A stretch of DNA of 64,000 bases from Candidatus Poribacteria bacterium (GTDB taxonomy: Bacteria > Poribacteria > WGA-4E > PCPOR2b), in NCBI GenBank assembly GCA_965205075.1, contig OZ242036.1:5822599-5886598 (forward strand), in the 5' to 3' direction. How positions within the stretch are numbered: the first letter of the stretch is position 1; each line of letters opens with the position of its first letter. Below are positions 1 to 29,876 of the stretch, piece by piece. The notes beneath the pieces are model-generated. The model ran no database searches. It saw only the letters and a list, made by a program, of their open reading frames with translations, and was not told the origin of the DNA. A program made the position numbers and the translations under genes.

Positions 1-407
1 GCGACCCCGCCAAGGGCAAGGAACTCGCATTGGCACAGTATAACAAAGGTACTGACGTGATTATAGCGGCGGCGGGTGCAACAGGCTTAGGTATACTCGA
101 AGCTGCCAAGGAAAAACAGAAATATCTCATCTGGGTGGATGCGAACGGGAACCATCTCGCACCGGGACTTGTCCTAACAAGTATGATTAAGGGGGTCGAA
201 CTCGCAGTCTACCAAACAATCCAAGCTGTTGTTGAAGGCAATTTCACCGGTGGAATAAAATTATACGGTCTCAAGGAGGGTGGCATTGAATATATCGTTG
301 ATGCTAACAATCAGGAGATATTATCACCGGAAATTCTGAAACGTGTTGAAGGGCTCAAAAAGCAGATTATTGACGGAGAGATTGTCCCCCCGTCGGAAAG
401 AGAATAA
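1..407 (+). CDS. BMP-family (basic membrane lipoprotein/PnrA-like) ABC-transporter substrate-binding protein, C-terminal fragment; 5' end lies outside the window
   Basis: The frame is open from the window edge to the stop at 405-407. The sequence IIAAAGATGLGILEAAKE...YLIWVDANGN...GLKEGGIEY resembles the BMP family C-terminal half. Confidence 0.55.
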   Translation, partial: DPAKGKELALAQYNKGTDVIIAAAGATGLGILEAAKEKQKYLIWVDANGNHLAPGLVLTSMIKGVELAVYQTIQAVVEGNFTGGIKLYGLKEGGIEYIVDANNQEILSPEILKRVEGLKKQIIDGEIVPPSERE

Positions 408-511
408 AGTGATTACCCTGTTTAGATCTGAATTGTTCTAAACAGTGATTCAGCTACAACAACGGAATACATACATTTCAGTTAGTATGACACAAAACAT
501 GGAGTATAATT

Positions 512-1387
512 ATGAACGAACGCGAAAAATTCCTCTTCGATCTGCGGGGTTACCTCCGGGTCGAAAACTTCCTGACCCACGAAGAGGTCCAAGGGCTCAA
601 CGAGGCCGTTGATGCCAACCATGACAAATACACAGAGGACAGCAAAATGTACGGTCTTGGTATGGATGGTGAGTACCATCGCCGATCTATGGTGGGGATG
701 CTGACATGGGAGCAACCTTGGTGCCAACCGTTCCGGGATCTAATCGCCCACCGGAAACTCATTCCCTACCTCAATGCCCTTTTTGGTCGTGGATGGCGAA
801 TGGACCATGAGCCTTTCTTGCTAATCTCTAGGAAGGGCACCGGTGGACACGGGTTACACGGTGCGACCAGTAGACATTTCGACGGTACGCAGTATTATAC
901 CTATGCAAATGGCGAAATGCGTGCAGGGCTAATCGTCTGTCAGTTCCAGTTGGCGGACATCAATCCCGGAGATGGCGGAATTGCTGTTATTCCGGGCAGC
1001 CATAAAGCTAACTTCCTTTGTCCCGAAGATATCATGCTTTACGACACCAACCAAGAGGTTGTGTATAACGTGGAAAGCAAAGCAGGAGATCTGGTAATCT
1101 TCATGGAAGCCACCATCCACGGTGCGCTGCCATGGACGGCTGATCATGAGAGACGTTCCCTACTTTACCGCTATTGCCCAAAGTCTATGCACACAAGTGG
1201 TGGCATCTATCAAACTAGCATGCCGACATGGGTTGACGAGTTGACAGAAGCGCAGCAGGCAGCGCTTGAACCGCCTTATATGTACAACCGACCTCTTATT
1301 GAGGACGACGGAGTTACCCTAGTACAACCCGGCCAAGAACCGGAACCCCATAGACCACGCGGCAAAGCCGAAATGAACGCAGAATGA
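512..1387 (+). CDS. Phytanoyl-CoA dioxygenase (PhyH) family Fe(II)/2OG oxygenase
   Basis: 291-aa ORF. The N-terminus FLFDLRGYLRVENFLTHEEV is typical of PhyH, with WRMDHEP (HxD) and a later IHGALPW His. Confidence 0.8.
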   Translation: MNEREKFLFDLRGYLRVENFLTHEEVQGLNEAVDANHDKYTEDSKMYGLGMDGEYHRRSMVGMLTWEQPWCQPFRDLIAHRKLIPYLNALFGRGWRMDHEPFLLISRKGTGGHGLHGATSRHFDGTQYYTYANGEMRAGLIVCQFQLADINPGDGGIAVIPGSHKANFLCPEDIMLYDTNQEVVYNVESKAGDLVIFMEATIHGALPWTADHERRSLLYRYCPKSMHTSGGIYQTSMPTWVDELTEAQQAALEPPYMYNRPLIEDDGVTLVQPGQEPEPHRPRGKAEMNAE

Positions 1388-1436
1388 AGGAAAACTGACC
1401 GCAGCAAATCCGCCAACGGATCGGAGAAATAATTTT

Positions 1437-3401
1437 ATGCAAGAAACGACGCCAGCCTCTTCCTCTACATTTCAACCTTCTCGGTCGCGTATTACCCTAC
1501 GTTCTGTGATCTTGGGTTGCATCCTTATGCCGATTAATGCCTACTGGATCGGAATGGAAGAGATGCTCTGGCACGGATTTCATTTCTCCGCAACCTCTAT
1601 CCCGATGAATGTTATTTTCATCATTTTCGTGCTGGCACTCTTGAACTACATCGCCCAACGATTCTTTCCTGCGTATGCGTTGAGCCAAATTGAACTCCTC
1701 GTCATCTATGTCATGCTGGCATGTGTTACCGCAGTGGTTGCCCACGATAACATGGTCGGTCTTATGGGACCTCTCTGCCACGCCTTCTGGTTTGCCACCC
1801 CCGAAAACGAATGGAAACAGATTCTCCAGCCTTACCTTCCGAGTTGGCTCGTCATGGGTAACACAACCATTGCCCGCCCTTTTTATGAAGGGGGAGCTAA
1901 TTTCTTCACCGAAGGCTATCTGCGCTACTGGATCGTTCCTATCATGAGTTGGACGGTCATCTCCTCCCTGATCTTCGCTCTTGTCGCTTTTGTAAATGTT
2001 CTGCTCCGACGTCAATGGATTGAGCATGAAAAACTGCCATATCCCATTACCCAACTGCCACTCGATATGACTGCACCCGGAATGGAGCTCTTCCGAAACC
2101 GCGGCATGTGGTTAGGGTTCACAATTGCAGCGGGCATCGAAATCATCAACGGAATCAATTTCCTTTATCCGTCCTTTCCAATGATACCGATTCGCGAGGA
2201 GAGTGCCGATATCTCGCGATGGCTTAACGAGGAACCGTGGGATGCGATTGGCCCAACTTTCTTTCATCTGCGCCTGTTTTTTATCGGTTTGTGTTTCCTT
2301 CTGCCACTGGATGTTAGTTTTTCAACAGCCTTTTTCTACTGGGTCCGCAAAGCGCAATACATTGGAGGAAAGGCGGCTGGGTGGTATACAATCCCTTACT
2401 ATCCTTTTCAACCGAACCAAGCTATGGGTGCAGCACTAGCGGTTGTTGTGATAGCAATGTGGGCAGGCAGGCAACATTTTCGGGAGGTTGGTAAACGGAT
2501 CCTTGGCATGAACACATCTATTGACGATTCGACGGAGCCGATGCGCTATCGATCGGCAGCTTTAGGCGTTGTAATCTGTCTCGTTCTCCTCTATTTGATC
2601 TGCAATCAAGCGGGGATGTCCCTGTGGGTATTCGCGCTATTTTTCGGATTGTACATGATGATCACAGCGTCTGTGACTCGGGTCCGTGCCGAACTTGGAC
2701 CACCCGCTCACGACATGGCTGGTGTCAATCCACAAACCGCCTTGACCACAGTGGTCGGGATACGTCCATTCGGACGTGGTAACCTTGTTATGTTCTCGCT
2801 TTTTTCGTGGTTTAATAGCCAGAATCGCAGCCAACCTATGCCGCATCAACTTGAAGGCTTTAAACTGGCGCAACGCACCGGCATGGATCATCGCAAACTA
2901 TTGTGGGTGATGCTCTTTTCGATTGTGATAGGTGTTTTCTCCGCATTTCTGATGTACCTTTATGTCCTGTATACGCATGGGGGCAGTAAGGCGGGAATGA
3001 TTTTGGGTCCCGGTTGGGGGGTTTACAACCGATTGGCTGGCTGGCTACAGTTTCCACGACCGACAGATTTTTTCGGATCGATGGTCATCGGTCTATCATT
3101 TCTATTTACGATATTTCTCGGTGCCATGCGGCTCAAGTTTATCTGGTGGCCCTTCCACCCGGTCGGTTATGTGATAGGCATCAACGGTGGAACGCTGGAT
3201 CAATTTTGGCTCGTGTTAATCCTCTCCTCAATCGCCAAGTTCGTGATACTCAAATATGGTGGGGCGCGTCTATACCGACGTGTGTTGCCTTTCTTCCTAG
3301 GGTTGGTCTTGGGCGATGTAGTCAGTGGCAGCTATTGGGCTATCCTAGGCGTAATTTTAGAGACGCCGATGTATGTCGTGTGGTTCTGGACAGTACAGTG
3401 A
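1437..3401 (+). CDS. Uncharacterised polytopic membrane protein, paralogue 1 of 5 (~650 aa)
   Basis: 654-aa ORF with GGAGA RBS upstream of the ATG and many hydrophobic segments. It shares the motifs PENEW, W-E-E-L-YP, PLD(L/V)SFS, RAELG..HD, PMPxQLE..KLA.R, WWPFHP.GY and PFFLGL.LGD with ORFs at 4781, 23813, 25887 and 27894. Confidence 0.85.
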   Translation: MQETTPASSSTFQPSRSRITLRSVILGCILMPINAYWIGMEEMLWHGFHFSATSIPMNVIFIIFVLALLNYIAQRFFPAYALSQIELLVIYVMLACVTAVVAHDNMVGLMGPLCHAFWFATPENEWKQILQPYLPSWLVMGNTTIARPFYEGGANFFTEGYLRYWIVPIMSWTVISSLIFALVAFVNVLLRRQWIEHEKLPYPITQLPLDMTAPGMELFRNRGMWLGFTIAAGIEIINGINFLYPSFPMIPIREESADISRWLNEEPWDAIGPTFFHLRLFFIGLCFLLPLDVSFSTAFFYWVRKAQYIGGKAAGWYTIPYYPFQPNQAMGAALAVVVIAMWAGRQHFREVGKRILGMNTSIDDSTEPMRYRSAALGVVICLVLLYLICNQAGMSLWVFALFFGLYMMITASVTRVRAELGPPAHDMAGVNPQTALTTVVGIRPFGRGNLVMFSLFSWFNSQNRSQPMPHQLEGFKLAQRTGMDHRKLLWVMLFSIVIGVFSAFLMYLYVLYTHGGSKAGMILGPGWGVYNRLAGWLQFPRPTDFFGSMVIGLSFLFTIFLGAMRLKFIWWPFHPVGYVIGINGGTLDQFWLVLILSSIAKFVILKYGGARLYRRVLPFFLGLVLGDVVSGSYWAILGVILETPMYVVWFWTVQ

Positions 3402-3713
3402 TCGCTGTATCTGCCGGATCAAAAATTCTATGGCTCAGCGCCTGGTTTGCCGTCAAGCGGTACATCACAGAAATCCCACTGGCTAGTGTCGAAACATATC
3501 AAGTCAGAAAAAACTTGAACTTATAGTCTAGTTGGATGTAAAATATTAAGATGGAAGCGGATTTGAGTCGTCCTGAAACGACTCAGGCTATTAGATTCTA
3601 CCCCCTAAGCGTGTATATTTTCGGTCACCTGATTGAGCGTTGATTGGATAGATTCTTAGCTTGCGAATGATTCGCAGGTTTTTCTAAGCGCTTTATGCGA
3701 AAGGAGTTACATT

Positions 3714-4571
3714 ATGCTAACTCAGCAACAGATCGACTTCTACCATGAAAATGGTTACATTGGTGTTGAAAATGTGCTTTCGGAGCAAGATATTATCGAC
3801 CTTCGTCGCGTGACAGATGAATTTGTCGAAAAATCCCGTGAAGTCACCGAACATACTGACGTTTTTGATCTTGAACCCGGTCATTCCGCAGAATCTCCCC
3901 GCGTACGCCGAATCAAAAATCCAGCAGCTCAACACATTGTCTATGATCAGGTGCGAACTTACGCCTCCATTATCGACATCGTTGAGCAATTAGTGGGGCC
4001 TGGTGTTCGTTCTATGGGCAGCAAACTGAATATGAAATACCCCGATTTTGGAAGTCCTGTTGAATGGCACCAAGATTGGGCGTTCTACCCCCATACGAAT
4101 GATGATGTGTTGGCAGTCGGTGTTGCTATTGACGATATGTCGATGGAGAATGGCGCGTTAATGGTCATTCCCGGCTCCCATAAGGGACCAATCTACGACC
4201 ATCACCAGGACGGTCGTTTCGCAGGTGCAGTCACTGACCCCAATTTTAGCCCGGACGGTGCTGTCCCCATCGCGGTCAAAGCCGGAGGCATTTCGATTCA
4301 TCATGTTCGTACCCTCCACGGCTCTGCCCCCAACATCTCTAGCACACCACGCCGCTTACTGCTCGCCGCCTACACCGCGGCTGACGCATGGCCCCTGAGC
4401 GGAGACTGGGAGGCTTTAAGTGCCAATATCCTGCGTGGTGAACTCACGAATCAGGTACGTATGGTCGAGGCTCCGGTTCGCATGGCACTTCCCCGTGCGG
4501 AGCGCGGCGGTTCAATTTACGAAACCCAGACCATTCTGAAAAAACCACTCTACACTGAGAAAACCAAGTGA
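3714..4571 (+). CDS. Phytanoyl-CoA dioxygenase (PhyH) family Fe(II)/2OG oxygenase
   Basis: 285-aa ORF with AAGGAG RBS. LTQQQIDFYHENGYIGVENVLS N-terminus, WHQDWAF (HxD) and a distal IHHVRTLHGS. Confidence 0.85.
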   Translation: MLTQQQIDFYHENGYIGVENVLSEQDIIDLRRVTDEFVEKSREVTEHTDVFDLEPGHSAESPRVRRIKNPAAQHIVYDQVRTYASIIDIVEQLVGPGVRSMGSKLNMKYPDFGSPVEWHQDWAFYPHTNDDVLAVGVAIDDMSMENGALMVIPGSHKGPIYDHHQDGRFAGAVTDPNFSPDGAVPIAVKAGGISIHHVRTLHGSAPNISSTPRRLLLAAYTAADAWPLSGDWEALSANILRGELTNQVRMVEAPVRMALPRAERGGSIYETQTILKKPLYTEKTK

Positions 4572-4780
4572 ATCTCCAGTCCCGACGTTGACGAATTGTT
4601 CCGATTCGATCAACGACGAGAATTCCGACAAATCGCAACCAGTGTGAAGGGATGACGGGTGATAAATGAGTCACTCGTCATTCCTTATCTCTCACAAGGC
4701 ACGTTTGATGTAGCTGCTGTCACAGTATACCCCAAATATCTGGTGATAGCACAACAACGACAGGAGGCACCTCATCATCC

Positions 4781-6748
4781 GTGCGCCACACATCAAACCC
4801 TCCAGCCAAACCGAATCTAACCGCACAGATTTTCAAGCTGCTTTTCATCGGTCTCGTAGTCCTACCGCTCAACAGCCTCTGGGTTGTTGACACCGGCATC
4901 ACAGGGCATGGCGTGAACTTCACGCGGGTGTCGCTGTTCATGAACGCGATCTTCCTCATCTTCGTCTTGAGTCTGATCAATCCGTGGCTCAAGCGTTATG
5001 TTCCGAGGTTCGCACTGGATTCAAGCGACATGGTGCTGATCTATGTGATGCTGTGTGTCTCGTCAGCTATCGCGGGCCACGACATGATCCAGCGACTGTT
5101 CCCGCTCATAGGACACGCATTCTATTTTGCCGCACCTGAGAATGAGTGGCAGGAACTCTTCCATCGCTATGTGCCGCATTGGCTCGTTGTTACAGATAAA
5201 TCGGTGCTGGCTGGTTACTACAAAGACCGCGGCACATTTTATGATAACACCTTTTACGTTACCGAATACTTCAACGCGTGGCTGGTGCCCTGCCTTGCAT
5301 GGTGTACCGTTATTATCGCACTGTTGATTTGTATGCTAGGCATTAACCTCCTAGTGCGCAAACACTGGACAGTCCACGAACGCCTCACCTATCCGCTCGC
5401 CCAAATACCGTTAGATATTATCAACAACGGTCCCCGCCTATTCAAAACGCGCCTAATCTGGACTGGATTTGCCCTATCTGTAGGATTCAATCTTATCAAC
5501 GGCATTCACACCCTATTCCCCGTCGCGCCAAGTATCTTTTATGGACGCTACCTTCTGAGTCAGTATTTCACCGCGAAACCATGGAACGCACTCGGTTGGA
5601 TTCCCATTGAGTTTCACCCATTCGCGATCGGGTTGGCATTCTTTATGCCGCTAGACCTCTCTTTCTCTTGTTGGTTTTTCTACTGGCTTTGGCGGCTAGA
5701 AAGGGTGGTAGGAACAGTCTTCTCTGGTGGCAGCATGTTAGCTGGGTTCCCTTTTACATGGGAGCAATCCATCGGCACTTGCGCGGCAATTTTACTTATG
5801 ACATTGTGGGGGCTGCGATTTACCGGACGGGAAATTCTACAGAGTTTTTTTAGAATGCCTACCACTGCCCAAAGCACTGGGGATCAACGACGTGAAATTC
5901 TGGACAATCGGGCGGAGATACGACGCTATCGCTGGGCAGTTTTTGGCATTTTCGCAAGCGTGAGCTATCTCATCGGGTTCTGCTACGTTGCGGGGATGTC
6001 CGTGTGGGTTTCGGCGGTCTTTTTCCTCATCTTCTTTGGGCTTTCAACGGTTGTGACACGCATCCGTGTCGAGGCAGGTTACCCGATGCACGATTTTGCG
6101 TTTCGCCCCGAGGATATTGTCGTGACAGGATTCGGCACACAAGCGGTTGGTCCCACGAGTCTCACACTATTTTCCTATCTCCACTTCTTCACTTACGCCC
6201 ATCGTAGCAATCCACAGCCACATCAATTGGAAGCATTTCGGCTGGCGGATCGGATGAATCTCTCTATCAATGGGATGCTGATTGCAGGTATCCTGATTGC
6301 TACGGTGGTTGGATCGATCGCCGCTTGTTGGGCATATCTACACACCGCTTATCAATATCAGGGGAGTACGTGGCCCGGCTGGCCCATCTTTAACCGTTTA
6401 CAAAACTGGCTAAGCTATCCGCGGGGGACGGATGTCAAATCGCTAATTTTTATGGGTGGCGGCTTCGGTATCGGGCTAGGGTTTCTGATTATGCGGCGGC
6501 TTTTTATCTGGTGGCCCTTTCATCCGGCGGGATATGTGATTGGTGGAACATGGTCGCTCAATCTCTTATGGTTTTCAATCTTTCTTAGTTGGGTAGCCAA
6601 ATTAATCATCCTTCGATTCGGTGGGCTCAAGTTGTATCGTCAGGCGAGCACGTTTTTTATCGGTCTCGTTTTGGGAGAGTTTGTAACCGCAAGTTTCTGG
6701 GGTGTGATTGGCACAATTTTGGGGCAGGCAACCTATCGATTCATCTGA
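4781..6748 (+). CDS. Uncharacterised polytopic membrane protein, paralogue 2 of 5
   Basis: 655-aa ORF with a GTG start about 13 nt after AGGAGG, so the start is uncertain. It carries the same motif set as 1437..3401 (APENEW, WTVHERLTYP, KPWNALGW, PLDLSFSCWFFYW, RVEAGYPMHD, PQPHQLEAFRLADR, WWPFHPAGY, FFIGLVLGE). Confidence 0.85.
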   Translation: MRHTSNPPAKPNLTAQIFKLLFIGLVVLPLNSLWVVDTGITGHGVNFTRVSLFMNAIFLIFVLSLINPWLKRYVPRFALDSSDMVLIYVMLCVSSAIAGHDMIQRLFPLIGHAFYFAAPENEWQELFHRYVPHWLVVTDKSVLAGYYKDRGTFYDNTFYVTEYFNAWLVPCLAWCTVIIALLICMLGINLLVRKHWTVHERLTYPLAQIPLDIINNGPRLFKTRLIWTGFALSVGFNLINGIHTLFPVAPSIFYGRYLLSQYFTAKPWNALGWIPIEFHPFAIGLAFFMPLDLSFSCWFFYWLWRLERVVGTVFSGGSMLAGFPFTWEQSIGTCAAILLMTLWGLRFTGREILQSFFRMPTTAQSTGDQRREILDNRAEIRRYRWAVFGIFASVSYLIGFCYVAGMSVWVSAVFFLIFFGLSTVVTRIRVEAGYPMHDFAFRPEDIVVTGFGTQAVGPTSLTLFSYLHFFTYAHRSNPQPHQLEAFRLADRMNLSINGMLIAGILIATVVGSIAACWAYLHTAYQYQGSTWPGWPIFNRLQNWLSYPRGTDVKSLIFMGGGFGIGLGFLIMRRLFIWWPFHPAGYVIGGTWSLNLLWFSIFLSWVAKLIILRFGGLKLYRQASTFFIGLVLGEFVTASFWGVIGTILGQATYRFI

Positions 6749-6798
6749 AGAAAACTGAACTATTAACCCGGATTTTTCGCAGCTTGACTTACCAGCAA

Positions 6799-7263
6799 TC
6801 ACCTGTCCGCAATAATCCAACCACCATCTATAAGTTCAGTAGTTGCACAACTCGGACCACCATATTTATCTGTCCCCATATATCTCGCCATAAGCACCCT
6901 ATTCAGATTTTCGGATACCTCTCTTATCATATCCCAAGTCACTTCCTCTTGGCGTAGAGATTTGGGGTAGCCCGTTGAAATCCAAATTTTTGCCCTTCTG
7001 CACCATTCACAATCCGGTTGACCTGCTAGCTCCCCGATATTGACGTAAAAGAACCGTTTCGAGGGAGTTCCTCGCGCGAATGGCCCTGTAAAGTTGGGAA
7101 CACCCGTGTTGCGCTGCGGTTTCACTGTCGCGTCAAAATCAAACGTAATATCCTCTCCCGTAGACTCGGTAACCGAAACCAAATTCCCACTGTTTTCCAA
7201 AGAGAAATTAACTCCGGCTGGAGGACTCACAACAACAATACGCATTGGGATTTTGTATTCCAT
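6799..7263 (-). CDS. Hypothetical protein, possibly DUF5990-like
   Basis: 154-aa ORF. The pattern FTGPFARGTPSKRFFYVNIG...WCRRAKIWI resembles what I recall of DUF5990 proteins. This family call is from memory only. Confidence 0.45.
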   Translation of the reverse strand: MEYKIPMRIVVVSPPAGVNFSLENSGNLVSVTESTGEDITFDFDATVKPQRNTGVPNFTGPFARGTPSKRFFYVNIGELAGQPDCEWCRRAKIWISTGYPKSLRQEEVTWDMIREVSENLNRVLMARYMGTDKYGGPSCATTELIDGGWIIADR

Positions 7264-7313
7264 AATTTTATCCTCGCGTTTCCTCTGGAGTTTATAACTG
7301 GGTTGATGTCATT

Positions 7314-8528: not shown

Positions 8529-8580
8529 TAATCATCTCCTGTTTGCTTCCTCCTATAATTTACCTCGAAAGTCCCACCGT

Positions 8581-10349: not shown

Positions 10350-10363
10350 TTGTGACTCCTCCT

Positions 10364-18385: not shown

Positions 18386-19165
18386 ATGATGCAATCAATT
18401 AGTGACAGTCAATGGGAGCAATTCAAGGAGGAGGGCTATCTCCTGCTCGGTAGAGTGATGGACGATGAAGAACTCACTACCTTGCAGCAGCGCATTGATG
18501 ACATTATGATGGGCAAAGCCAAACTTCCCTACGATCAGATAATGATGCAAATTGATGGTAAGACCAGCGACTACAGTAAGATGGAACCGATGACCAAGGG
18601 GCACAAAGGTCCGTCGTTAAACTATCGTAAGATCACCGAACTGGAGCTTGACCCATTCTTCTTGTCGTATATGCAAAAACCTGCCTTCCGGGATATTTGT
18701 GCTAGAGCCTACGGTCCCTCTACCTCGGTTGCTACCCCGCGTGCAATGTTTATGAATAAGCCGGCCGACACAGGAACTCACCTGCCTTGGCATCAGGATG
18801 TATTTCGGAACCTTGACACACTTTCAGACATTATCATCTGGGCGGCGCTGGATCCCGCGACCCTTGATAGTGGCTGTCTCAGAGTAATTCCCAAATCTCA
18901 TCACCGCATCTATGAAGGAAACTTCCCCACGGAAGAACAGTTGGAAACCCTCTTCGCGGTGGCGGATCCCGTCACCCTTGAATTACAACCGGGCGAGGGG
19001 GTATTGCTGCACGTCAACCTGATTCACACTTCTGCGGTGAATGATACCGGTTTGCCACGGCGGGCATTCAGCGTTGCTTATGTAGATGCTGCGGCTAGGA
19101 CCAACGATGGCCAGCCTCTCCCCACTATTTTTGGCGAAGATGCCTTAACCCCGCAATTCAACTAA
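18386..19165 (+). CDS. Phytanoyl-CoA dioxygenase (PhyH) family Fe(II)/2OG oxygenase
   Basis: 259-aa ORF with AGGAGG RBS. SDSQWEQFKEEGYLLLGRVM N-terminus, LPWHQDVF (HxD) and NLIHTSAVN. Confidence 0.8.
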   Translation: MMQSISDSQWEQFKEEGYLLLGRVMDDEELTTLQQRIDDIMMGKAKLPYDQIMMQIDGKTSDYSKMEPMTKGHKGPSLNYRKITELELDPFFLSYMQKPAFRDICARAYGPSTSVATPRAMFMNKPADTGTHLPWHQDVFRNLDTLSDIIIWAALDPATLDSGCLRVIPKSHHRIYEGNFPTEEQLETLFAVADPVTLELQPGEGVLLHVNLIHTSAVNDTGLPRRAFSVAYVDAAARTNDGQPLPTIFGEDALTPQFN

Positions 19166-21708: not shown

Positions 21709-22548
21709 ATGACTGCACCCCATGCGTGGACACCTGCTGAAGGCAGTCTACAAGAAATATTAAAGGAATATCCAAAGCCTCTCAATGCGTTGGTATCGGG
21801 TGAAGTGCCGGCGATTGTTCTCCGCCAAGCTTTCAATCCGGATCACTGTGTGGGTCTCATAGAGAGACTCTATGAACGTGGCTTGGCATACGACCCTCGC
21901 CCAACTGAAAACAACGAAGAAAGTAATAGACCTGTGTACGTTGGTCCCGCTTTCGTTAGGTACAGTCCCGATCCCGACAAACTCTTCGCCTACGCCGCCG
22001 ACACCCACGAACTTTTCAAAACCTTGTTCAACGGGTACGACGATCCAGTGAAGACCTTCTACGAGATGTTGTCGTGTCTGGCACCGGACAAGCGGGTGAT
22101 GACCGCTCGTGAGCCGGACGGCCGTCTTTATGGTCCCGCCGTTTTTCGCGTCTATTATGCCGATCGAGGACACGGACCACACTTTGATTCTGTAGCAAAA
22201 CGACAGAAATTGTTCCATTATCAGGTTTCGCGGTTCCAGCACCAGTTCGCTGGAGTGATGTGCTTCCAGAACTCCGAAAACAGAGGTGAAAATGGAGAGC
22301 CCTTCCTGTACAACTGTCCTTGGACCCCCGCCGTACAGGAATATATCACCGCAGGCACGTTTAGCCAATATGTCGCTGAACAAGGCATCCCCCGGGCTCA
22401 AATTCAACTTGAACCCGGCGACCTTTACTTCTTTTTTTCTGAAAACATCCATGAAGTGCCGCCGGTGGTAGGTGAGGAGCCGCGCATTGTACTCGCTGCC
22501 TTCTTTGGTATGTCCCCGGACGATGAAGAGATTTTTGTCTGGTCGTGA
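21709..22548 (+). CDS. Fe(II)/2OG-dependent oxygenase-like protein (HxD...H)
   Basis: 279-aa ORF. RGHGPHFDS gives an HxD motif and there is a distal ENIHEVPP His. The subfamily was not recognised. Confidence 0.5.
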   Translation: MTAPHAWTPAEGSLQEILKEYPKPLNALVSGEVPAIVLRQAFNPDHCVGLIERLYERGLAYDPRPTENNEESNRPVYVGPAFVRYSPDPDKLFAYAADTHELFKTLFNGYDDPVKTFYEMLSCLAPDKRVMTAREPDGRLYGPAVFRVYYADRGHGPHFDSVAKRQKLFHYQVSRFQHQFAGVMCFQNSENRGENGEPFLYNCPWTPAVQEYITAGTFSQYVAEQGIPRAQIQLEPGDLYFFFSENIHEVPPVVGEEPRIVLAAFFGMSPDDEEIFVWS

Positions 22549-22598: not shown

Positions 22599-23699
22599 AT
22601 GAAAATTACGAAAATCGAAACATTCCAGATTGAAACTCCGCGCTATTACCAAAAACATCCGGTTGACACAGGCGAAGCGCCATCAGGTCACGTTATCGTG
22701 AAACTCCATGTGGCTGACGGACTCGTAGGGCTAGGGGAAGCCTCAGACAGCAAGGCTGATGATCTGGCCGCGCTAACAAAGCGCTACAACGATTTGCTGG
22801 TTGGACGCGACGCTACCCGGATTACCGAGATTAATGAATTGATGCGGACGCAGGACTTTGGTAGTTCAGTCAGCAACTCACACATAACAGCTGCCATCGA
22901 CATCGCATTGTACGATCTCAATGGCAAAGCGCAGGGTGTGCCAGCCCACAATTTAATGGGCGGAAAAGTGCGAGATAGCATATACTTCTGTTATCCAATC
23001 ATCGGGGTGCACCTAGAGGACGGTTTCGAGCGGAATGCTCATTACCTACAGCGGTTGGTGGATTTGGGACATCATCTGTTTCGTTACTACGTTTCAGGAG
23101 ACGCCGATCGGGACAACCGATTCATCACCGAGATGAAAGATCGCTTCGGAGATAAGATTAAACTCAAAGCCTTCGATTTCTCCGGACGTTTCTCGGATTG
23201 GGAGACCGCTCTGCGTTATGCAGACGTGCTACGTCACCATAACCCGTATAATTTTGAACAACCATCAAACAATTTGCGGGTATGTGCCGACTTCGTCAAA
23301 CGGATGGATGTGCCGGTGAGTCTCCATATCAGCACGTTAGAAGAAGGTTACGAAGCGATTGAGCGCGGGGCGTGCACCGTCCTAAACTTGGCGTGGGTCT
23401 GGTATGGACCGACCTACGTGCGTCGGATGTTCGCGCTAGCAGAAGCCGCGGGCTTGAAGACCTTGCTTTCAACAGATCAGGATTCAACCATAGGCACAGC
23501 CGGCGCGGTGCATCTCGGAGTTTCGGTGCCCAACTTAGATATCCCTGCCGACCCTGCTGGTCCCCTACTCTATACAGTTTCGCCTGCCAAAGAGCGCATC
23601 CGAGCTGAGGCGAGCCACCTGTATCCGCCAGAGGGCCCTGGCTTGGGTGTTGAGTTGGACGACGACAAGATGAGGGAACTAACAGTCGCCTCCGCATAA
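22599..23699 (+). CDS. Mandelate racemase/muconate lactonising enzyme (enolase superfamily) protein
   Basis: 366-aa ORF. It has the MKITKIETFQIE...GLVGLGEA capping-domain start and a barrel-domain layout typical of the family. Confidence 0.75.
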   Translation: MKITKIETFQIETPRYYQKHPVDTGEAPSGHVIVKLHVADGLVGLGEASDSKADDLAALTKRYNDLLVGRDATRITEINELMRTQDFGSSVSNSHITAAIDIALYDLNGKAQGVPAHNLMGGKVRDSIYFCYPIIGVHLEDGFERNAHYLQRLVDLGHHLFRYYVSGDADRDNRFITEMKDRFGDKIKLKAFDFSGRFSDWETALRYADVLRHHNPYNFEQPSNNLRVCADFVKRMDVPVSLHISTLEEGYEAIERGACTVLNLAWVWYGPTYVRRMFALAEAAGLKTLLSTDQDSTIGTAGAVHLGVSVPNLDIPADPAGPLLYTVSPAKERIRAEASHLYPPEGPGLGVELDDDKMRELTVASA

Positions 23700-23812: not shown

Positions 23813-25729
23813 TTGAGTCCGACAGACAGTCGTTTTCTCGCTTCAACTCACCGCCCCCAGCCAGAAATTCGTTGGCGTGTAATCTGGCTGGCAGCAGCTA
23901 TCATCCCTTTTAACAACTACTGGGTCTACGCGATGCTGCGGTGGGCACAGGGCCTCCCGACGACCATGTCGCTTTTCTTCAATGTGATTTTTATCTTTGC
24001 GATTCTGCTCGCGTTGAATTATGGAATTTCCCTATATTCGCCGCGCTTGGCATTGACCCAAGGCGAATTGCTGACGTTCTACGCCATGCTTTCCGTCGCC
24101 ACTGCAATCGCCGGCGCAGATTTCTTCGCCGTAATCATCACACATATTGCCGTTGGCGGCTGGATGGCAACTGAGGAGAACGAATGGGCGACATTGTTTC
24201 ACCGTTACTTCCCCGATTGGCTGGCATTGACCGACAAAAATAGTCTCAGAACCTATTTTGTCGGTGAGTCGGCCCTTTACCTTGACGAGCATCTGCGGTT
24301 ATGGTGGAGGCCTGTCCTTTCATGGTCTGGGTTTATCGTTGTCCTCGTTTGCACGGCGTTTTGCATCAACGTCGTTATGCGGAAACAGTGGATTGAGATA
24401 GAACGACTCAGCTACCCAATTATCGAACTTCCGCAGCAGATGACAACCAAGGGCTTCTTTCGGAATCGGTTGATGTGGGCCGGAGCGATCCTCGCTGGCG
24501 GTATGGATATCGTCAACGCGCTGCATTTCTTGTATCCATCCATCCCAGGACTCGGTGGCGATTTCTTCGACCTGCAACCCTATTTTACCACGAAACCGTG
24601 GAACGCTATCGGTTGGACGCCTGTCACGCTCTTCCCCTTTGCTGTAGGGATGGCATATTTTATGCCACTCGATCTCTCCTTCACCTTCTGGTTTTTCTAT
24701 ATCTTTTGGAAATTTGAGTTGATCATGGGGAGTATTCTTGGGTTTCAACAGATCCCCAACTTTCCGTATATCTTTGAGCAATCATTTGGCGTCTGTGTCG
24801 GTGTGCTGATTCTGGTGTTTTGGAGTGCACGGCATCATTTACGAAACGTGCTGATAGGCGCATGGCGCGGCGAAAAAGCGTCTGAGTCTAACGAACCGAT
24901 TTCTTATCGTACGGCGGTCCTCGGGGTAATTATCGGTTTCCTGTTGTTAATCGGTTTTTGGGTAGTGGCGGGGATGTCGCTCTGGGTCGCTGTCCTGGTT
25001 TTCATTATCCATTTTACGACCGTAACCGTTACGGCTCGCATCCGCGCCGAACTCGGACCACCTCTCCATGATCTCCGCAGGATGGGACCTGATGTGCTAA
25101 TTCCACAGATGTTTGGCATGCGGCGAGTAGGTCCTAGAAACCTCAGCCTGTTCGCGCTCGTATTTCCTTTTAATCGTGCCTATCGGGGCAATGCTATGCC
25201 GCCGCAACTGGAAGGACTGAAACTCGCCGAGCGAGCAGGCATCTCGACGCGGCGCGTCGGATTCGCGATACTGATTGCTGTTTTCATCAGTCCATTACCT
25301 CTGTTCTGGGGCGGATTACAACTCGGCTACGAATCCGGTGCGGTGGCGTTTTGGGGCGGCGGTGTCTTTCGGCGAACCCAAAGTTGGCTCACCAATCCAA
25401 TGCCTGTGGATGTCCTAGGAATCTTGGCAATGCTCTTCGGCACGCTCTTCACCTTCGCTCTCACCGCCTTGCGTCATCGTTTCGTTTGGTGGCCCCTCTA
25501 TCCCGTTGGGTACGGCATCACAGGCACATGGGCGGTCAACTTTTTTTGGTCTTCGGTACTCGTTGCTTGGGTGATTAAGTTGTGCATCCTCCGCTTTGGA
25601 GGCATAAGAACGTTTCGCCGCCTAGCGCCGTTCTTTCTAGGAATGCTATTCGGTGAGTTTCTGCTCGGAGGTGTATGGGCACTGATTGGTGTGATTGTCC
25701 AGATGCCAATGTATCGGTTTATTTGGTGA
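23813..25729 (+). CDS. Uncharacterised polytopic membrane protein, paralogue 3 of 5
   Basis: 638-aa ORF with an uncertain TTG start. Motifs TEENEW, WIEIERLSYP, KPWNAIGW, PLDLSFTFWFFY, RIRAELGPPLHD, AMPPQLEGLKLAER, WWPLYPVGY and PFFLGMLFGE. Confidence 0.8.
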   Translation: MSPTDSRFLASTHRPQPEIRWRVIWLAAAIIPFNNYWVYAMLRWAQGLPTTMSLFFNVIFIFAILLALNYGISLYSPRLALTQGELLTFYAMLSVATAIAGADFFAVIITHIAVGGWMATEENEWATLFHRYFPDWLALTDKNSLRTYFVGESALYLDEHLRLWWRPVLSWSGFIVVLVCTAFCINVVMRKQWIEIERLSYPIIELPQQMTTKGFFRNRLMWAGAILAGGMDIVNALHFLYPSIPGLGGDFFDLQPYFTTKPWNAIGWTPVTLFPFAVGMAYFMPLDLSFTFWFFYIFWKFELIMGSILGFQQIPNFPYIFEQSFGVCVGVLILVFWSARHHLRNVLIGAWRGEKASESNEPISYRTAVLGVIIGFLLLIGFWVVAGMSLWVAVLVFIIHFTTVTVTARIRAELGPPLHDLRRMGPDVLIPQMFGMRRVGPRNLSLFALVFPFNRAYRGNAMPPQLEGLKLAERAGISTRRVGFAILIAVFISPLPLFWGGLQLGYESGAVAFWGGGVFRRTQSWLTNPMPVDVLGILAMLFGTLFTFALTALRHRFVWWPLYPVGYGITGTWAVNFFWSSVLVAWVIKLCILRFGGIRTFRRLAPFFLGMLFGEFLLGGVWALIGVIVQMPMYRFIW

Positions 25730-25886: not shown

Positions 25887-27806
25887 GTGCCTGAAACGAC
25901 CTTCCAAAACGGTCTGACGCTCAAATCCTTTTTTATTACACTGTGTCTCATTCCTATCAATATTTACTTCGTTGTTCAACTTGAAGTTGTTCGTTATACA
26001 TTTCCCACGCTCGTCCATCCACTATCGAATGTCATTTTTATTCTATTTTGGCTACTTCTGATTGGAGCCATTCTCAAGAAAATCTCCCCCAAGCTTGGAA
26101 TTAGCTCACCAGAACTTCTGACAATCTATGTCATGTTGGGCGTTGTATCGGCTCTCTGCTCGGCTGACACGATGCAAATCTTAATCACCATTTTGGGGCA
26201 TCCCTTCCGCTTTGCAACACCTGAAAATCAATGGCGTGAACTGTTCTGGAAGGAATTGCCCGCTTGGCTCACCGTCCAAGATGAAAAGGCACTAACCCCC
26301 TATTACGAAGGGGGATCTAGCTTCTATATAAGACGGCATCTGTATGCGTGGCTCCGTCCCGCGCTGGCATACATTGTATTTATCTTTGTGCTGATGTTTG
26401 TGATGCTGTGCATCAATACGCTGTTACGGATTCAGTGGACGGAGCGGGAACGGTTGACTTATCCAATTATTCAACTTCCACTGGAAATGACGGACACCAG
26501 TAATAGGTTCTTCAAAAATAAACTGATGTGGCTTGGCTTCAGCATCGCTGCGTTGATTAGTATAATGAATTTGCTCAATTCGATTTACCCCGCTGTTCCC
26601 TATATTCCCGTCAAGCGTCAGAATTTACACCAATATTTCACTGGCCGCCCTTGGAATGCGATGGGCTCCTTCCGGGTTTCGTTTTATCCCTTTGTCATCG
26701 GCATTGGGTTCCTCATACCACTAGATCTCCTCTTTTCATGCTGGATGTTTTACGGAGTCTATAAAATTGAACTAATGGTCGGTAACATAATGGGGTGGCG
26801 CAATCTGCCGCGTTTTCCCTATTTCAACGAACAGGCATTGGGCGTCTACGTTGCACTGCTCGTATTTGTGCTGTGGGTCGGCAGAGTCCATTTCAAGGGG
26901 TTGGTGCGCCATCTGCTAGGTTCATCTTCACTCGATGATTCCCGTGAACCGATGCCATATCGCTTGGCAGTCGCAGGTATATTAATTGGATTGATATTCT
27001 TGATGGCATTTTCCTACAGAGCGGGGATGTCCTTGTGGGTTACTCCGATCTTTTTCGCGATTTACTTTCTAGTCGCGATAATGATTGCGAGACTCCGTGC
27101 GGAATTGGGTTTTTTAGTACACGATTTACACTACATTGACCCGCACAACACGCTCGTCACCGTATTTGGAACACGCCGCCTCGGATCGAGCACATTGACC
27201 GTCTTTTCGTTATATCAGTTTTTCAATCGTGCCTATCGGGCTCACCCGATGCCACCACAACTGGAAGGCTTGAAAATCGCTGAAAGACGAAATATCAATC
27301 CACGTCACATAGCTGCAGCGATTCTACTCGCCACCTTAATTGGATCGGTGAGCGTTTTTTGGGTATTGTTAGATAACTACTACCGACACGGCGCAGAAAC
27401 CGGGTACTATGGACCATGGGCACTGGGGTACGGACGAGCCATCTATGGTCAACTCGAAACGTGGCTGAACTACCCCCGAGAGACAGATGTTCCAGCTATC
27501 GCTTTCATGGGAGGCGGACTCGGTTTCGCAGCACTACTCATGTTCCTAAGAACGCGCTTTCTGTGGTGGCCCCTCCATCCACTCGGCTATGCCATGGCAA
27601 ATAGCTGGGGGATGTTCAATCTGTGGGCTTGTCTCTTTGTTGCATGGATAGCGAAAGCAATCATCCTACACCACGGCGGACTTAGGGCATACCGACAAGC
27701 GATCCCCTTCTTTTTGGGGCTTGCCCTAGGAGACTATATGTTCGGCAGCCTGTGGAGTATTATTAGTATTGCAACCAACAGCACTCTGTATCAATTTTTT
27801 CCCTAG
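25887..27806 (+). CDS. Uncharacterised polytopic membrane protein, paralogue 4 of 5
   Basis: 639-aa ORF with a GTG start 9 nt after GGAGG. It has the same motif set and aligns by eye along its full length with paralogue 5. Confidence 0.85.
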   Translation: MPETTFQNGLTLKSFFITLCLIPINIYFVVQLEVVRYTFPTLVHPLSNVIFILFWLLLIGAILKKISPKLGISSPELLTIYVMLGVVSALCSADTMQILITILGHPFRFATPENQWRELFWKELPAWLTVQDEKALTPYYEGGSSFYIRRHLYAWLRPALAYIVFIFVLMFVMLCINTLLRIQWTERERLTYPIIQLPLEMTDTSNRFFKNKLMWLGFSIAALISIMNLLNSIYPAVPYIPVKRQNLHQYFTGRPWNAMGSFRVSFYPFVIGIGFLIPLDLLFSCWMFYGVYKIELMVGNIMGWRNLPRFPYFNEQALGVYVALLVFVLWVGRVHFKGLVRHLLGSSSLDDSREPMPYRLAVAGILIGLIFLMAFSYRAGMSLWVTPIFFAIYFLVAIMIARLRAELGFLVHDLHYIDPHNTLVTVFGTRRLGSSTLTVFSLYQFFNRAYRAHPMPPQLEGLKIAERRNINPRHIAAAILLATLIGSVSVFWVLLDNYYRHGAETGYYGPWALGYGRAIYGQLETWLNYPRETDVPAIAFMGGGLGFAALLMFLRTRFLWWPLHPLGYAMANSWGMFNLWACLFVAWIAKAIILHHGGLRAYRQAIPFFLGLALGDYMFGSLWSIISIATNSTLYQFFP

Positions 27807-27893: not shown

Positions 27894-29876
27894 ATGAAAA
27901 GTATATTGACAGAACCTCAAAATACCCGTTTTACCTTAACAGAGAATACCCCTGTGCCGTTCCAGAGCGGTTTAACACTTAAATCATTCGTGATCGCTTC
28001 CCTGCTGATTCCGGTCACGGTTGCTTGGATCATTCAGCTTGAAGTGGTTCGCCATACCTTTCCAACGCTTGTTCATCCGCTCTCGCATGTCATTTTCACG
28101 ATTTTCTGGCTTGTTCTGATCGGGTGGATATTCGGTAAAATCTCCCCCAAGCTCGGTCTTTCTCAACAGGAACTCCTCACGATCTACTTCATGTTGTGCA
28201 TTGTTTCCACTCTTTGTTCGTATGACTGTATGGAGATCTTCGTACCGATCATGGCGCATGCGTTCCGGTTTGCTAGTCCTGAAAACGAATGGCGGCAGCT
28301 GTTTTGGCGACAACTGCCGGAGTGGCTCACAGTTCACGACGAAAAAGCGGTAACGGCTCTTTATGAAGGAGGTTCAAGTCTTTACACCGAGAGGTATTTA
28401 AAGGCGTGGCTTGGTCCGGCGGTGGCGTGGATGGCGTTTATCTTTGCGTGGATGGTTGTGATGCTGTGTATTAACGCGCTGTTGCGGGTTCAGTGGATTG
28501 AGCGTGAGCGGTTGACCTATCCCCTGACCCAACTTCCGTTGGAGATGACCAATCCGAGGTTAGGCTTCTTCAGAAACAGGTTGATGTGGCTCGGTTTCGG
28601 CATTGCTGCCCTGATCAGTATTGTGAATCTGCTTCATTCCATCAACCCTATTATCCCCTATATCCCTGTCAAACGCCAGAGCATCAGTCACTATTTTACC
28701 ACCCGTCCTTGGAATGGGATGGGTGGTGTGCAGGTCGCTTTCTATCCTTTCGCGATTGGGATCGGCTTTCTTATACCGCTGGATCTCCTATTTTCATGCT
28801 GGGCGTTTTTCTGGATCTACAAAATTGAACTGATGATTGGCAGCATCATGGGTTGGCGAGGTCTACCACGCTTCCCTTATCCCGCCGAACAGGCTTTCGG
28901 TGTATATATGGGGCTGCTAGGGTTCGTCCTCTGGACTGGCAGATCGCATATCAAAGGGATAGTGCGTCACCTGTTCAGTTCCCGTGCTTCCCCATCACAA
29001 CTAGATGATTCCGGCGAACCGATGCCATATCGCCTTGCTGTTGCGGGCATCATACTCGGCCTGATTTTTCTAATGGCATTTTCCTATAAGGCAGGTATGT
29101 CGCTGTGGGTGATTCCAATTTTCTTCGCAATCTATTTCTTACTATCGGTAATGGTTACGCGACTCAGGGCGGAGCTGGGGTTCCTAGTACACGGTTTGAA
29201 ATTCATCAGTCCACATAACATGATTGTTGCCGGGGTTGGAACATGGCGACTTAATACCAGCACACTGACTGTCTTTTCGCTGTACATGTTTTTCAATCGC
29301 GCCAACTGGGCAAATCCAATGCCGGAACAGCTGGAAGCCTTGAAAATCTCGGAAAGGCGGAATATTAACCCACGCCATACAGCCGCTGCGATTCTGCTTG
29401 CGACAGTTATTGGATCGGCGGTAACTTTTTGGCTATTGTTGGATATCTACTATCGACACGGCGCGGAATCTGGATACTTTGATCCCGCCGTATTGGGATT
29501 TGGGCGTGATGTCTATGTGCAGCTTGAAAACTGGCTGAACTCTCCTAAAGAGCCAGATCGTCCAGCACTCGCCTTTGTGGGGGGTGGGGTTGTGTTTACT
29601 GTGTTGCTGATGTTTTTGCGGGCGCGCTTCCTGTGGTGGCCGCTCCATCCACTCGGTTATGCCACAGCACAGAGTTGGGGGATGGCGAACCTTTGGTGCT
29701 GTCTCTTTGTCGCTTGGGCGTGCAAGGCTATCATCCTACGCTATAGCGGATTCAACGCATATCGACGCGCAATCCCATTCTTTCTCGGACTCGCCTTAGG
29801 GGACTATATTTTGGGTAGCCTCTGGAGTATTTTGGACATTCCAACCACTATCTCTTTATACCTATTTTTCCCTTAA
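27894..29876 (+). CDS. Uncharacterised polytopic membrane protein, paralogue 5 of 5
   Basis: 660-aa ORF with the same motif set. It is the closest relative of paralogue 4. Confidence 0.85.
   Translation: MKSILTEPQNTRFTLTENTPVPFQSGLTLKSFVIASLLIPVTVAWIIQLEVVRHTFPTLVHPLSHVIFTIFWLVLIGWIFGKISPKLGLSQQELLTIYFMLCIVSTLCSYDCMEIFVPIMAHAFRFASPENEWRQLFWRQLPEWLTVHDEKAVTALYEGGSSLYTERYLKAWLGPAVAWMAFIFAWMVVMLCINALLRVQWIERERLTYPLTQLPLEMTNPRLGFFRNRLMWLGFGIAALISIVNLLHSINPIIPYIPVKRQSISHYFTTRPWNGMGGVQVAFYPFAIGIGFLIPLDLLFSCWAFFWIYKIELMIGSIMGWRGLPRFPYPAEQAFGVYMGLLGFVLWTGRSHIKGIVRHLFSSRASPSQLDDSGEPMPYRLAVAGIILGLIFLMAFSYKAGMSLWVIPIFFAIYFLLSVMVTRLRAELGFLVHGLKFISPHNMIVAGVGTWRLNTSTLTVFSLYMFFNRANWANPMPEQLEALKISERRNINPRHTAAAILLATVIGSAVTFWLLLDIYYRHGAESGYFDPAVLGFGRDVYVQLENWLNSPKEPDRPALAFVGGGVVFTVLLMFLRARFLWWPLHPLGYATAQSWGMANLWCCLFVAWACKAIILRYSGFNAYRRAIPFFLGLALGDYILGSLWSILDIPTTISLYLFFP

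Follow-up and report, generated by a model that had tools for sequence, protein, structure and literature searches.

Two PhyH dioxygenase-transporter gene pairs in a Candidatus Poribacteria chromosome are probably independent juxtapositions of members of two expanded families

Introduction

OPT transporters take up small organic solutes, such as peptides and metal chelates, by ion-coupled secondary transport. In Escherichia coli the conserved, co-regulated tauABCD operon joins an ABC importer to a TauD-family enzyme, so that an uptake system is encoded beside the 2OG dioxygenase for which it imports the substrate. This is also the concept that an original prediction had applied to the locus described here, in which two consecutive pairs, each of a PhyH-family dioxygenase gene and a membrane protein gene, were taken for a recurring module of uptake and hydroxylation. 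Unlike tauABCD, the locus combines an OPT-like transporter with a PhyH-family enzyme, and the pairing is not conserved.

Poribacteria are a phylum of sponge symbionts in which no other Pfam family is as abundant as PhyH, with more than 1.9% of genes compared with less than 0.049% elsewhere (Kamke 2014, PMC3909097). The expansion comprises 305 genes, which fall into 193 clusters at 60% identity; a few of the copies have been linked to phnY/phnZ phosphonate use, and the study makes no mention of DUF6785 transporters or of any transporter pairing (Kamke 2014, PMC3909097). The same Pfam family, PF05721, contains the PHYHD1/FJS-type 2'-O-methyl-nucleoside demethylases, which include a tested poribacterial enzyme (2025, PMC12709175). 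We found no paper naming DUF6785/DUF6784 in the literature searched, and a search for Poribacteria together with oligopeptide transporter returned nothing related.

Results

The window, meaning the whole stretch of DNA analysed, is 64 kb of a Candidatus Poribacteria chromosome with 55 ORFs; gene calls, here and in the other loci, are simple longest-ORF calls. On its plus strand a Fe(II)/2-oxoglutarate dioxygenase gene, PhyH1 (512..1387), is followed after 49 nt (1388-1436) by the membrane protein gene M1 (1437..3401). A spacer of 312 nt separates this pair from the second one, also on the plus strand, in which PhyH2 (3714..4571), again encoding a Fe(II)/2-oxoglutarate dioxygenase, is followed after 209 nt (4572-4780) by M2 (4781..6748). 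The four predicted ORFs were confirmed, as were their common strand and the lengths of both gaps. Both pairs are therefore present, but the inventory drawn from them was incomplete, as the window has five membrane paralogues, four PhyH-family genes and one WelO5-like oxygenase gene.

The WelO5-like Fe(II)/2OG oxygenase gene (21709..22548, plus strand; PF22814, 84.2 bits) is the first gene of the unit in which the other three membrane paralogues lie. It is followed on the same strand by an enolase-superfamily (MR/MLE) gene (22599..23699; matches to MR_MLE_N and MR_MLE_C), M3 (23813..25729; 36-39% identity to the other paralogues), M4 (25887..27806) and M5 (27894..29876), all three recognised by Pfam. 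M4 and M5 are 70% identical, and by its sequence M5 is a recent tandem duplicate of M4. The same pair of WelO5 and enolase genes is also found in another locus, L091. Each of the five transporter genes of the window thus belongs to a same-strand unit that begins with a 2OG oxygenase gene (PhyH1, PhyH2 or the WelO5-like enzyme), which is more than frequencies of 2-7% would predict. The two remaining PhyH-family genes are one at 18386..19165 (plus strand; PF05721, 87.5 bits), with no DUF6785 gene adjoining, and a divergent one at 62107..62970 (minus strand; 33.2 bits against a PF05721 cut-off of 22 bits). The four PhyH genes fit the pattern of many highly divergent copies described for the same family in the same phylum (Kamke 2014, PMC3909097).

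Directly upstream of PhyH1 is the 3' part of an orphan gene for a Bmp/PnrA-like solute-binding protein (30..407, plus strand; Pfam Bmp, 70.9 bits), cut by the window edge. The complete gene in the related locus L009 encodes 329 aa and scores 228.7 bits, and the five larger ORFs scanned over the 8 kb upstream of it in L009 include no ABC permease or ATPase. The gaps along Bmp-PhyH1-M1 are 105 and 49 nt in the window and, by our own ORF calls, 37 and 7 nt in L009.

All five membrane paralogues match DUF6785 and DUF6784 (PF20581 and PF20580), in this order, with 479-547 and 101-123 bits (508 and 101 for M1, 479 and 108 for M2). The AlphaFold2 model of M1 (pLDDT 93.2, pTM 0.93) was compared with the PDB using Foldseek, and the only significant matches were 7wst_A (E 5.7e-9) and 7wsr_A (E 3.7e-8), both with probability 1.0 and both structures of the barley Yellow Stripe 1 transporter HvYS1; the third-ranked match had an E of 0.045. 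The superposition covers the whole chain over about 680 columns with a TM of 0.58-0.63 (0.59/0.63 for 7wst_A). Residues E123, N124, E198, R417, E473 and K601 are invariant and lie within the membrane. M1 thus resembles the OPT/Yellow-Stripe-like proteins (PF03169; HvYS1, 7wst/7wsr) in its whole-chain fold, with a TM of about 0.6, in its length of some 650 residues and in being all-helical and polytopic. It differs in that sequence identity to HvYS1 is only 14%, and M1-M5 do not reach the PF03169 threshold, giving no match at E<=1, and are filed by Pfam under two separate DUFs. A family profile search against PDB sequences also gave no match, so that only the fold comparison was informative. 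One of the 20 family members scanned did pass the PF03169 gathering score of 25.8: P0004, which is 70% identical to M1, scored 31.3 bits over residues 327-604, in its C-terminal half.

The model and the score of P0004 make it very likely that the M1-type membrane protein is an OPT-superfamily secondary transporter, and DUF6785/DUF6784 can now be read as a putative, divergent branch of the OPT/Yellow-Stripe superfamily which, unlike HvYS1, is bacterial and expanded in Poribacteria. The predicted role of the membrane protein as a substrate-uptake component is supported to this extent, HvYS1 being the only significant fold match and a close paralogue passing the OPT score. An alternative in which these proteins are some other polytopic enzyme, for example a glycosyltransferase or polymerase, and the adjacency to PhyH reflects envelope biosynthesis, could draw on the DUF-only annotation, on the lack of a PDB sequence match by profile and of an OPT Pfam match for M1 at E<=1, and on envelope genes (UPP synthase, BacA) among the neighbours. 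We regard it as very improbable; the whole-chain matches to HvYS1 and the OPT score of the 70% paralogue speak against it, and neither GT-C nor polymerase structures were present among the Foldseek matches of M1. The family is large, with about 2,800-7,700 clusters at 50% identity; nearly all close homologues, as well as the 96%-identical loci, are from Candidatus Poribacteria, and none of the 120 DUF6785 homologues listed carries a PhyH (PF05721) fusion.

PhyH1 (62.1 bits) and PhyH2 (131.1 bits) each span positions 1-212 of the 213 of the PF05721 profile. In their pairwise alignment the iron triad and the C-terminal Arg read R-H-F-D ... I-H-G ... R-R-S in PhyH1 and W-H-Q-D ... L-H-G ... R-R-L in PhyH2, and since the Asp of the triad is kept neither enzyme is halogenase-type. 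The nearest solved relatives of PhyH2 are EvdO2, EctD and human PhyH, while those of PhyH1 are very remote, with matches only at E 1e-4; at these distances no substrate can be inferred for either protein.

The tested demethylase (PMC12709175) shares the Pfam family with PhyH1 and PhyH2 and comes from the same phylum, and PhyH1 follows a gene of nucleoside-binding type (Bmp/PnrA-like). As identity of this enzyme to PhyH2 is only 27% and similarity to PhyH1 is undetectable, function cannot be transferred from it, and nucleoside demethylation was rejected as a candidate activity of the pair.

As had been predicted, neither the two dioxygenases nor the two membrane proteins are recent copies: identity is 21% between PhyH1 and PhyH2 and, over the full length, 36% between M1 and M2 (BLASTP). 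The PhyH1 orthogroup is conserved across phyla at 57-70% identity, and PhyH2 belongs to a separate cross-phylum orthogroup conserved at 65-75%. The identity between M1 and M2 is no higher than that to M3-M5 (36-39%), and the two are not sisters in a neighbour-joining tree calculated without support values. Given the tree positions of M1 and M2 and the 21% identity of PhyH1 and PhyH2, no pair was duplicated. The dioxygenases share a superfamily but are assigned by sequence to two different, widely conserved orthogroups, contrary to a view of the two pairs as copies of one. Elsewhere in the membrane family PhyH adjoins a member independently in six more cases, four of them at -1 (three same-strand, one divergent) and two at +1 (both same-strand), with a convergent +1 case in addition. 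Compared between different transporters, the PhyH partners share 19-30% identity and the transporters themselves 33-45%, and in the same tree, again without support values, the PhyH-adjacent transporters are isolated tips whose sisters have no such adjacency.

The two-pair arrangement is kept only in loci L008, L009 and L093, which have 84-90% DNA identity to the window region. Every compared gene that these loci contain is collinear there, nine in L008 and L009 and seven in the shorter L093. Because all flanking genes are equally collinear, persistence of the pairs in these loci carries no specific signal. Beyond them, the closest relatives of M1 at 70%, 57%, 48% and 46% identity have other neighbours and no PhyH pairing, and an M2 relative at 66% has none either. 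PhyH1 orthologues (70%, 68% and 62%) adjoin a gene of the Y_phosphatase3 family, PhyH genes in tandem or an ABC importer of Opp type, and the PhyH2 orthologues (74% and 69%) have no DUF6785 neighbour. With relatives of all four genes at 46-74% identity found outside any such pair, the idea that the pairing was maintained through divergence does not hold.

Neighbourhood statistics were obtained from 166 family members of 64 orthogroups in 158 other loci, a sample picked by similarity to M1 or M2 and not genome-wide. A first tally placed PhyH at -1 in 10 of 85 cases, an apparent enrichment that shrank on inspection: four of the ten come from the locus of the window itself, seen in two near-identical genomes, and another three represent one single orthogroup. 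A Pfam scan of the -1 neighbours gave PhyH in 6 of 77, with DnaN in 7, FG-GAP in 6, ankyrin in 6 and GHMP kinase in 5; PhyH at -1 is not commoner than DnaN, FG-GAP or ankyrin genes. Collapsed to orthogroups, PhyH was found at -1 in 4/53 (7.5%) compared with 9/262 (3.4%) at positions ±2-4 (Fisher p=0.16), and at ±1 combined in 7/112 (p=0.17). In an independent replication sample it was the upstream neighbour in 0 of 59. The recurring module thus fails the neighbourhood check, PhyH adjacency being without significant enrichment.

Measured against the published lower bound of 1.9%, the -1 rate of PhyH is nominally significant (binomial p=0.018). The local PhyH background is 3.2% and 2.1% of ORFs in two locus samples, and the point estimate of 7.5% of orthogroups at -1 is about twice this background. 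There may be a weak real tendency for PhyH genes and these transporter genes to adjoin. In the window itself PhyH accounts for 4 of the 55 ORFs. By our own arithmetic, the chance of two upstream adjacencies among five transporter genes is roughly 0.006-0.05, before allowing for the post-hoc choice of this window.

Likely ribosome-binding sites precede three of the genes, with GGAG 12 nt before the ATG of M1, AGGAG 7 nt before the ATG of PhyH2 and AGGAGG 13 nt before the GTG start of M2. The 49-nt gap and the site before M1 fit a predicted co-transcription of PhyH1 and M1, although by length alone both within-pair gaps are ambiguous. Between M1 and PhyH2 a sequence scan detected a promoter-like site, TTGAAC-18-TAAAAT (3515..3544, plus strand), within the 312-nt spacer. 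A scan of positions 1-8700 for consensus promoters and terminators gave counts equal to those in shuffled sequence, and the site is for this reason only a weak hint that the pairs may be separate transcription units. An Rfam scan of positions 1-9000 at E<=0.1 found no element.

Discussion

We favour, with a probability of about 0.72, the reading that the two PhyH-transporter adjacencies are independent, recent juxtapositions of unrelated members of two expanded families and not a conserved module. The chromosome harbours two greatly expanded families, soluble PhyH dioxygenases and predicted DUF6785+DUF6784 transporters of ~650 residues. Each transporter would act as an ion-coupled secondary carrier, in the manner of OPT proteins, and bring in some small organic solute, and each dioxygenase would oxidise a small molecule as its substrate. 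Pair 1 (Bmp-PhyH1-M1) at most might be an operon peculiar to this lineage, with PhyH1 acting on what M1 imports; with a gap of 49 nt, such local co-function of pair 1 is possible. Since no gene family is more abundant in Poribacteria than PhyH, PhyH-transporter adjacencies are to be expected, a dominance that the original prediction had missed.

A broader version of the operon idea, in which each upstream PhyH of this poribacterial genus hydroxylates or demethylates the compound imported by its OPT-like transporter and the arrangement is functional without being widespread, appears unlikely to us but has several observations on its side. The genes of pair 1 share a strand, a short gap and a ribosome-binding site before M1, the arrangement is kept in three other genomes, all five transporter genes of the window follow a 2OG oxygenase, and the -1 position shows a 2-fold excess as a point estimate. 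Moreover, a PhyH1 orthologue in locus L092 directly follows an Opp-type ABC importer and an ABC solute-binding protein gene precedes the WelO5-enolase pair in L091, so that oxygenase genes adjoin uptake genes of other transporter types too. Set against these are the confinement of the arrangement to genomes with 84-90% DNA identity and fully collinear flanks, the occurrence of the PhyH1 and PhyH2 orthogroups (57-75% identity) without such a partner in other phyla, and the 209-nt gap before M2 together with the spacer and its promoter-like site, which do not suit one tight operon. It is rather doubtful, too, that both families engage in plug-and-play scavenging, being repeatedly and transiently recruited into uptake-and-oxidation cassettes for sponge-derived compounds, with the ~2-fold excess at -1 being real and the window a hotspot.

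The original prediction itself, an ancestral PhyH and membrane protein module that was duplicated and kept its pairing while the copies diverged into recurring, conserved and substrate-specialised units, receives very little credence from us. Two consecutive same-strand pairs, and the six independent PhyH adjacencies and one convergent case elsewhere in the family, are what it would lead one to expect, but the dioxygenases come from distinct cross-phylum orthogroups, M1 and M2 are at least as close to M3-M5 as to one another and are not sisters, each of them has closer relatives with no PhyH neighbour, the PhyH partners are mutually unrelated, and the adjacency is neither significantly enriched nor replicated (0/59). 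As the module claim fails, there is no ground for treating the pairs as a new system. The preferred reading of independent juxtaposition also bears on method, in that adjacency of two lineage-expanded families calls for a lineage-specific null model.

The membrane family merits attention in its own right. DUF6785/DUF6784 is multi-copy in Poribacteria, with five members in 64 kb here, and could be the uptake-side counterpart to the known PhyH expansion, its members being candidate importers of organic compounds that are dissolved or come from the host. Downstream of DUF6785 genes, ABC_tran is the commonest neighbour (12/76). A role of DUF6785 as ABC permease was rejected at L022, the one such locus examined, where the ATPase is part of a full ABC-2 system that includes a permease and an auxiliary protein of its own; the ATPase is thus most simply a conserved neighbour within a dnaN-linked orthogroup (L016-L025).

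Organization of the PhyH and membrane protein genes

The first gene pair consists of PhyH1 (512-1387, + strand), encoding a protein of 291 amino acids that matches PF05721 with 62.1 bits, and M1 (1437-3401, + strand), encoding a membrane protein of 654 amino acids with the Pfam domains DUF6785 and then DUF6784. The second pair repeats this layout, PhyH2 (3714-4571, + strand; 285 amino acids, 131.1 bits against a PF05721 cut-off of 22 bits) preceding M2 (4781-6748, + strand; 655 amino acids, DUF6785 then DUF6784). The ORF listing gives intergenic distances of 49 nt for PhyH1-M1, 312 nt for M1-PhyH2 and 209 nt for PhyH2-M2. The enzymes are 21% identical and the membrane proteins 36%, and pairwise alignment showed that both PhyH1 and PhyH2 retain the iron-binding H-x-D...H triad as well as the C-terminal arginine. 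M1, PhyH2 and M2 each have a plausible Shine-Dalgarno sequence upstream. No Rfam element was found within positions 1-9000, and promoter and terminator consensus matches were as numerous as in shuffled sequence. The 312-nt spacer holds a 7-bp inverted repeat lacking a T-run (GAGTCGT-N6-ACGACTC, 3563-3585), just downstream of a promoter-like site (3515-3544).

All-against-all ORF comparison and Pfam scans revealed five DUF6785/6784 paralogues in the window, the others being M3 (23813-25729), M4 (25887-27806) and M5 (27894-29876). PhyH genes number four among 55 ORFs, the third at 18386-19165 and the fourth at 62107-62970. The coordinates and strand of all four ORFs of the original prediction are confirmed, but its two-pair description is incomplete, since both families have more members in the window. 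M4 and M5 are 70% identical and every other pair 36-39%, so M1 resembles M2 no more than either resembles M3-M5. M4/M5 (25887-29876) are tandem duplicates, which shows that the transporter family has recently expanded here. Directly upstream of M3-M5 lie genes for a WelO5-like 2OG oxygenase (21709-22548) and an enolase-superfamily (MR/MLE) protein (22599-23699).

The membrane proteins are predicted OPT-superfamily transporters

A literature search by name found no mention of DUF6785 or DUF6784, and a profile search against PDB sequences found nothing for the family. The AlphaFold2 model of M1, built on a 108-sequence alignment, is all-helical and very confident (pLDDT 93.2, pTM 0.93). Searching the PDB with this model, Foldseek returned exactly two significant matches, both to the barley OPT/YSL transporter Yellow Stripe 1 (E 5.7e-9 and 3.7e-8, probability 1.0, TM 0.58-0.63, whole chain); the next-best match had an E of 0.045. 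The paralogue P0004, which shares 70% identity with M1, scored 31.3 bits against the OPT family PF03169 (gathering score, 25.8 bits), and no match to PF03169 was found in any of M1-M5. We conclude that the DUF6785/6784 proteins very probably form a divergent branch of the OPT superfamily in bacteria, which makes secondary uptake transport their most likely function. The Yellow Stripe 1 match and the P0004 score thus support the proposal that the membrane protein is an uptake component. Each pair combines a PhyH dioxygenase with a predicted OPT-superfamily transporter that Pfam still lists under DUF names. Among 1.84 billion cluster representatives, a profile search recovered 2,812 family members at E<=1e-30, rising to 7,718 at E<=1e-3. 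The OPT assignment and the multi-copy occurrence of the DUF6785 family in Poribacteria are useful by-products of the analysis.

PhyH genes are not significantly enriched beside the transporter genes

PF05721 outnumbers all other Pfam families in poribacterial genomes, accounting for >1.9% of all genes as compared with <0.049% in any other genome available at the time, and its poribacterial members are extremely diverse (Kamke et al. 2014, PMC3909097). M1 homologues are overwhelmingly from Candidatus Poribacteria. In our two samples of fetched loci, PhyH genes made up 3.2% and 2.1% of the non-transporter ORFs.

The first sample comprised 78 loci from species-representative genomes, leaving out the window's own locus. 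With ORFs called by ourselves and a PhyH HMM built for this analysis, PhyH was detected directly upstream of the transporter gene (-1) in 6 cases. An independent Pfam scan of the 77 distinct -1 neighbours again gave 6, with similar counts for DnaN (7), FG-GAP/ASPIC (6), ankyrin (6) and GHMP kinase (5). Three of the six PhyH cases are one orthogroup (L056, L067, L069; 85-93% identical). In an independent replication with 80 metagenome loci ranked on M2, PhyH occurred at -1 in 0/59 and directly downstream (+1) in 2/67. Merging both samples and collapsing them at 60% identity reduced 166 genes to 64 orthogroups, with PhyH at -1 in 4/53, at +1 in 3/59 and at the background offsets ±2-4 in 9/262 (one-sided Fisher tests against ±2-4: -1 alone, p=0.16; ±1 combined, p=0.17). 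Binomial tests of the -1 position against fixed backgrounds of 1.9%, 2.5% and 3% gave p values of 0.018, 0.043 and 0.074. The excess at -1 is at most a weak 2-fold tendency, and >90% of transporter orthogroups have an upstream gene other than PhyH. By the refuting condition set in the original prediction, the recurring-module reading is not supported: enrichment at -1 was not significant in the Fisher test, and the replication yielded no case at that position.

The pairing is maintained only among close relatives

On the transporter side, P0004 lies beside a small hypothetical gene and a run of arabinofuranosidase, sulfatase and peptidase genes, P0017 (57% to M1) adjoins a cupin gene and another DUF6785 gene, and P0026 (48%) a Kelch-repeat gene and another DUF6785 gene. 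PhyH is likewise missing beside L015 (46% to M1) and beside L100, the sole M2 relative above 50% (66%). Within the 70% group of M1, L013 is a paralogue from the genome that also carries the 96% orthologue (L009). On the enzyme side, the PhyH1 orthogroup spans Poribacteria, Chloroflexota, Gemmatimonadota and Latescibacterota at 57-70% identity; its members neighbour a Y_phosphatase3 gene, tandem PhyH genes or a directly preceding Opp-type ABC importer, and none adjoined a DUF6785 gene in the loci examined. PhyH2 belongs to a separate, broad orthogroup, whose 74% and 69% members lack a neighbouring DUF6785 gene.

Two species-representative genomes carry the window's locus at 96% protein identity, and L093 (91% to PhyH2) keeps the full order Bmp-PhyH-DUF-PhyH-DUF-DUF5990-MFS. 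All compared genes present in L008 and L009 (nine genes) and the shorter L093 (seven) follow the gene order of the window, with 84-90% DNA identity, which is ordinary synteny among close relatives. The PhyH-adjacent transporters (the window's W1 and W2, L037, L052, L059, the L056 group and L041) are mutually 33-45% identical, and their PhyH partners 19-30%. In a neighbour-joining tree of 104 representatives, computed without support values, each of them stands alone at a tip, with a sister that is not PhyH-adjacent, and M1 and M2 fall in different clades. No PhyH fusion was found among the 120 DUF6785 homologues listed. What emerges is that random members of two large families have repeatedly come to lie side by side for a short time. 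The idea of a recurring module kept through divergence does not survive the non-significant enrichment, the relatives of all four proteins at 46-74% identity without the pairing, and the isolated tree tips.

Pair 1 may nevertheless be a local operon, as suggested by its 49-nt gap and by a same-strand run in L009 in which the genes for BacA, a Bmp/PnrA-like solute-binding protein, PhyH1 and M1 are separated by 48, 37 and 7 nt in our own ORF calls. The Bmp/PnrA-like gene (window 30-407; L009 8049-9038) lies directly upstream of PhyH1 and appears to be an orphan: PhyH1 and M1 follow it, and no ABC permease or ATPase was found among the five larger ORFs in the 8 kb upstream in L009. Oxygenase genes stand beside other uptake gene types in L092, where the PhyH1 orthologue follows the Opp-type importer, and in L091 (612-2589), where the WelO5-like and enolase-superfamily pair recurs with an ABC solute-binding protein gene upstream. 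These neighbours keep a lineage-specific functional link between oxygenase and transporter plausible, if rather unlikely. In the window, the WelO5-enolase pair (21709-23699) has three DUF6785 transporter genes downstream instead, and one uptake system may have been displaced by another.

Other observations at the compared loci

PhyH1 orthologues in L088-L091 (about 3000-4900) consistently adjoin the Y_phosphatase3 (tyrosine-phosphatase-like) gene, divergent or tandem, a pairing that looks better conserved than PhyH1-DUF6785. A poribacterial PF05721 2'-O-methyl-nucleoside demethylase has been experimentally characterised (PMC12709175); this identity was rejected for our enzymes, the protein being 27% identical to PhyH2 and undetectable against PhyH1. 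In L098 and L099 (5028-7310) a DarT/NADAR gene pair (ADP-ribosyltransferase toxin-antitoxin type), missing from the corresponding site in L097, is inserted beside the PhyH2 orthologue.

In many poribacterial species (L016-L025, about 8400-15600), the members of one DUF6785 orthogroup (42-43% identity to M1) always lie at a conserved site, with dnaN on the other strand to one side and an ABC ATPase gene downstream; the orthogroup looks like a core, single-copy part of the family. An ABC ATPase gene lies downstream of 12/76 DUF6785 genes; it was rejected as a partner in the one locus examined, L022, where genes for an ABC-2 permease and ABC_transp_aux come after it and the ATPase is part of a complete ABC-2 system that has a permease of its own.

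Elsewhere in the window, seven tandem secreted Laminin_G_3 (concanavalin-like) paralogues (- strand; mutually 52-75% identical) and an eighth, divergent copy (15397-16293, + strand) form a striking local gene-family array at 8581-16293. A TnpB/IS605 OrfB gene (Cas12f1-like TNB domain; 20400-21608) lies between the FGE-sulfatase and WelO5-like genes, a second TnpB gene precedes the locus in L009 (1391-2554), and a DDE transposase is encoded at 50922-52067. A 590-amino-acid radical-SAM ORF (39628-41400, - strand) has an internal LAGLIDADG_3 homing-endonuclease match and may contain an intein. A small ORF (46352-46666) shares a 66-amino-acid stretch with gatB (47079-48524, - strand) at 97% identity, which suggests a duplicated gene fragment.
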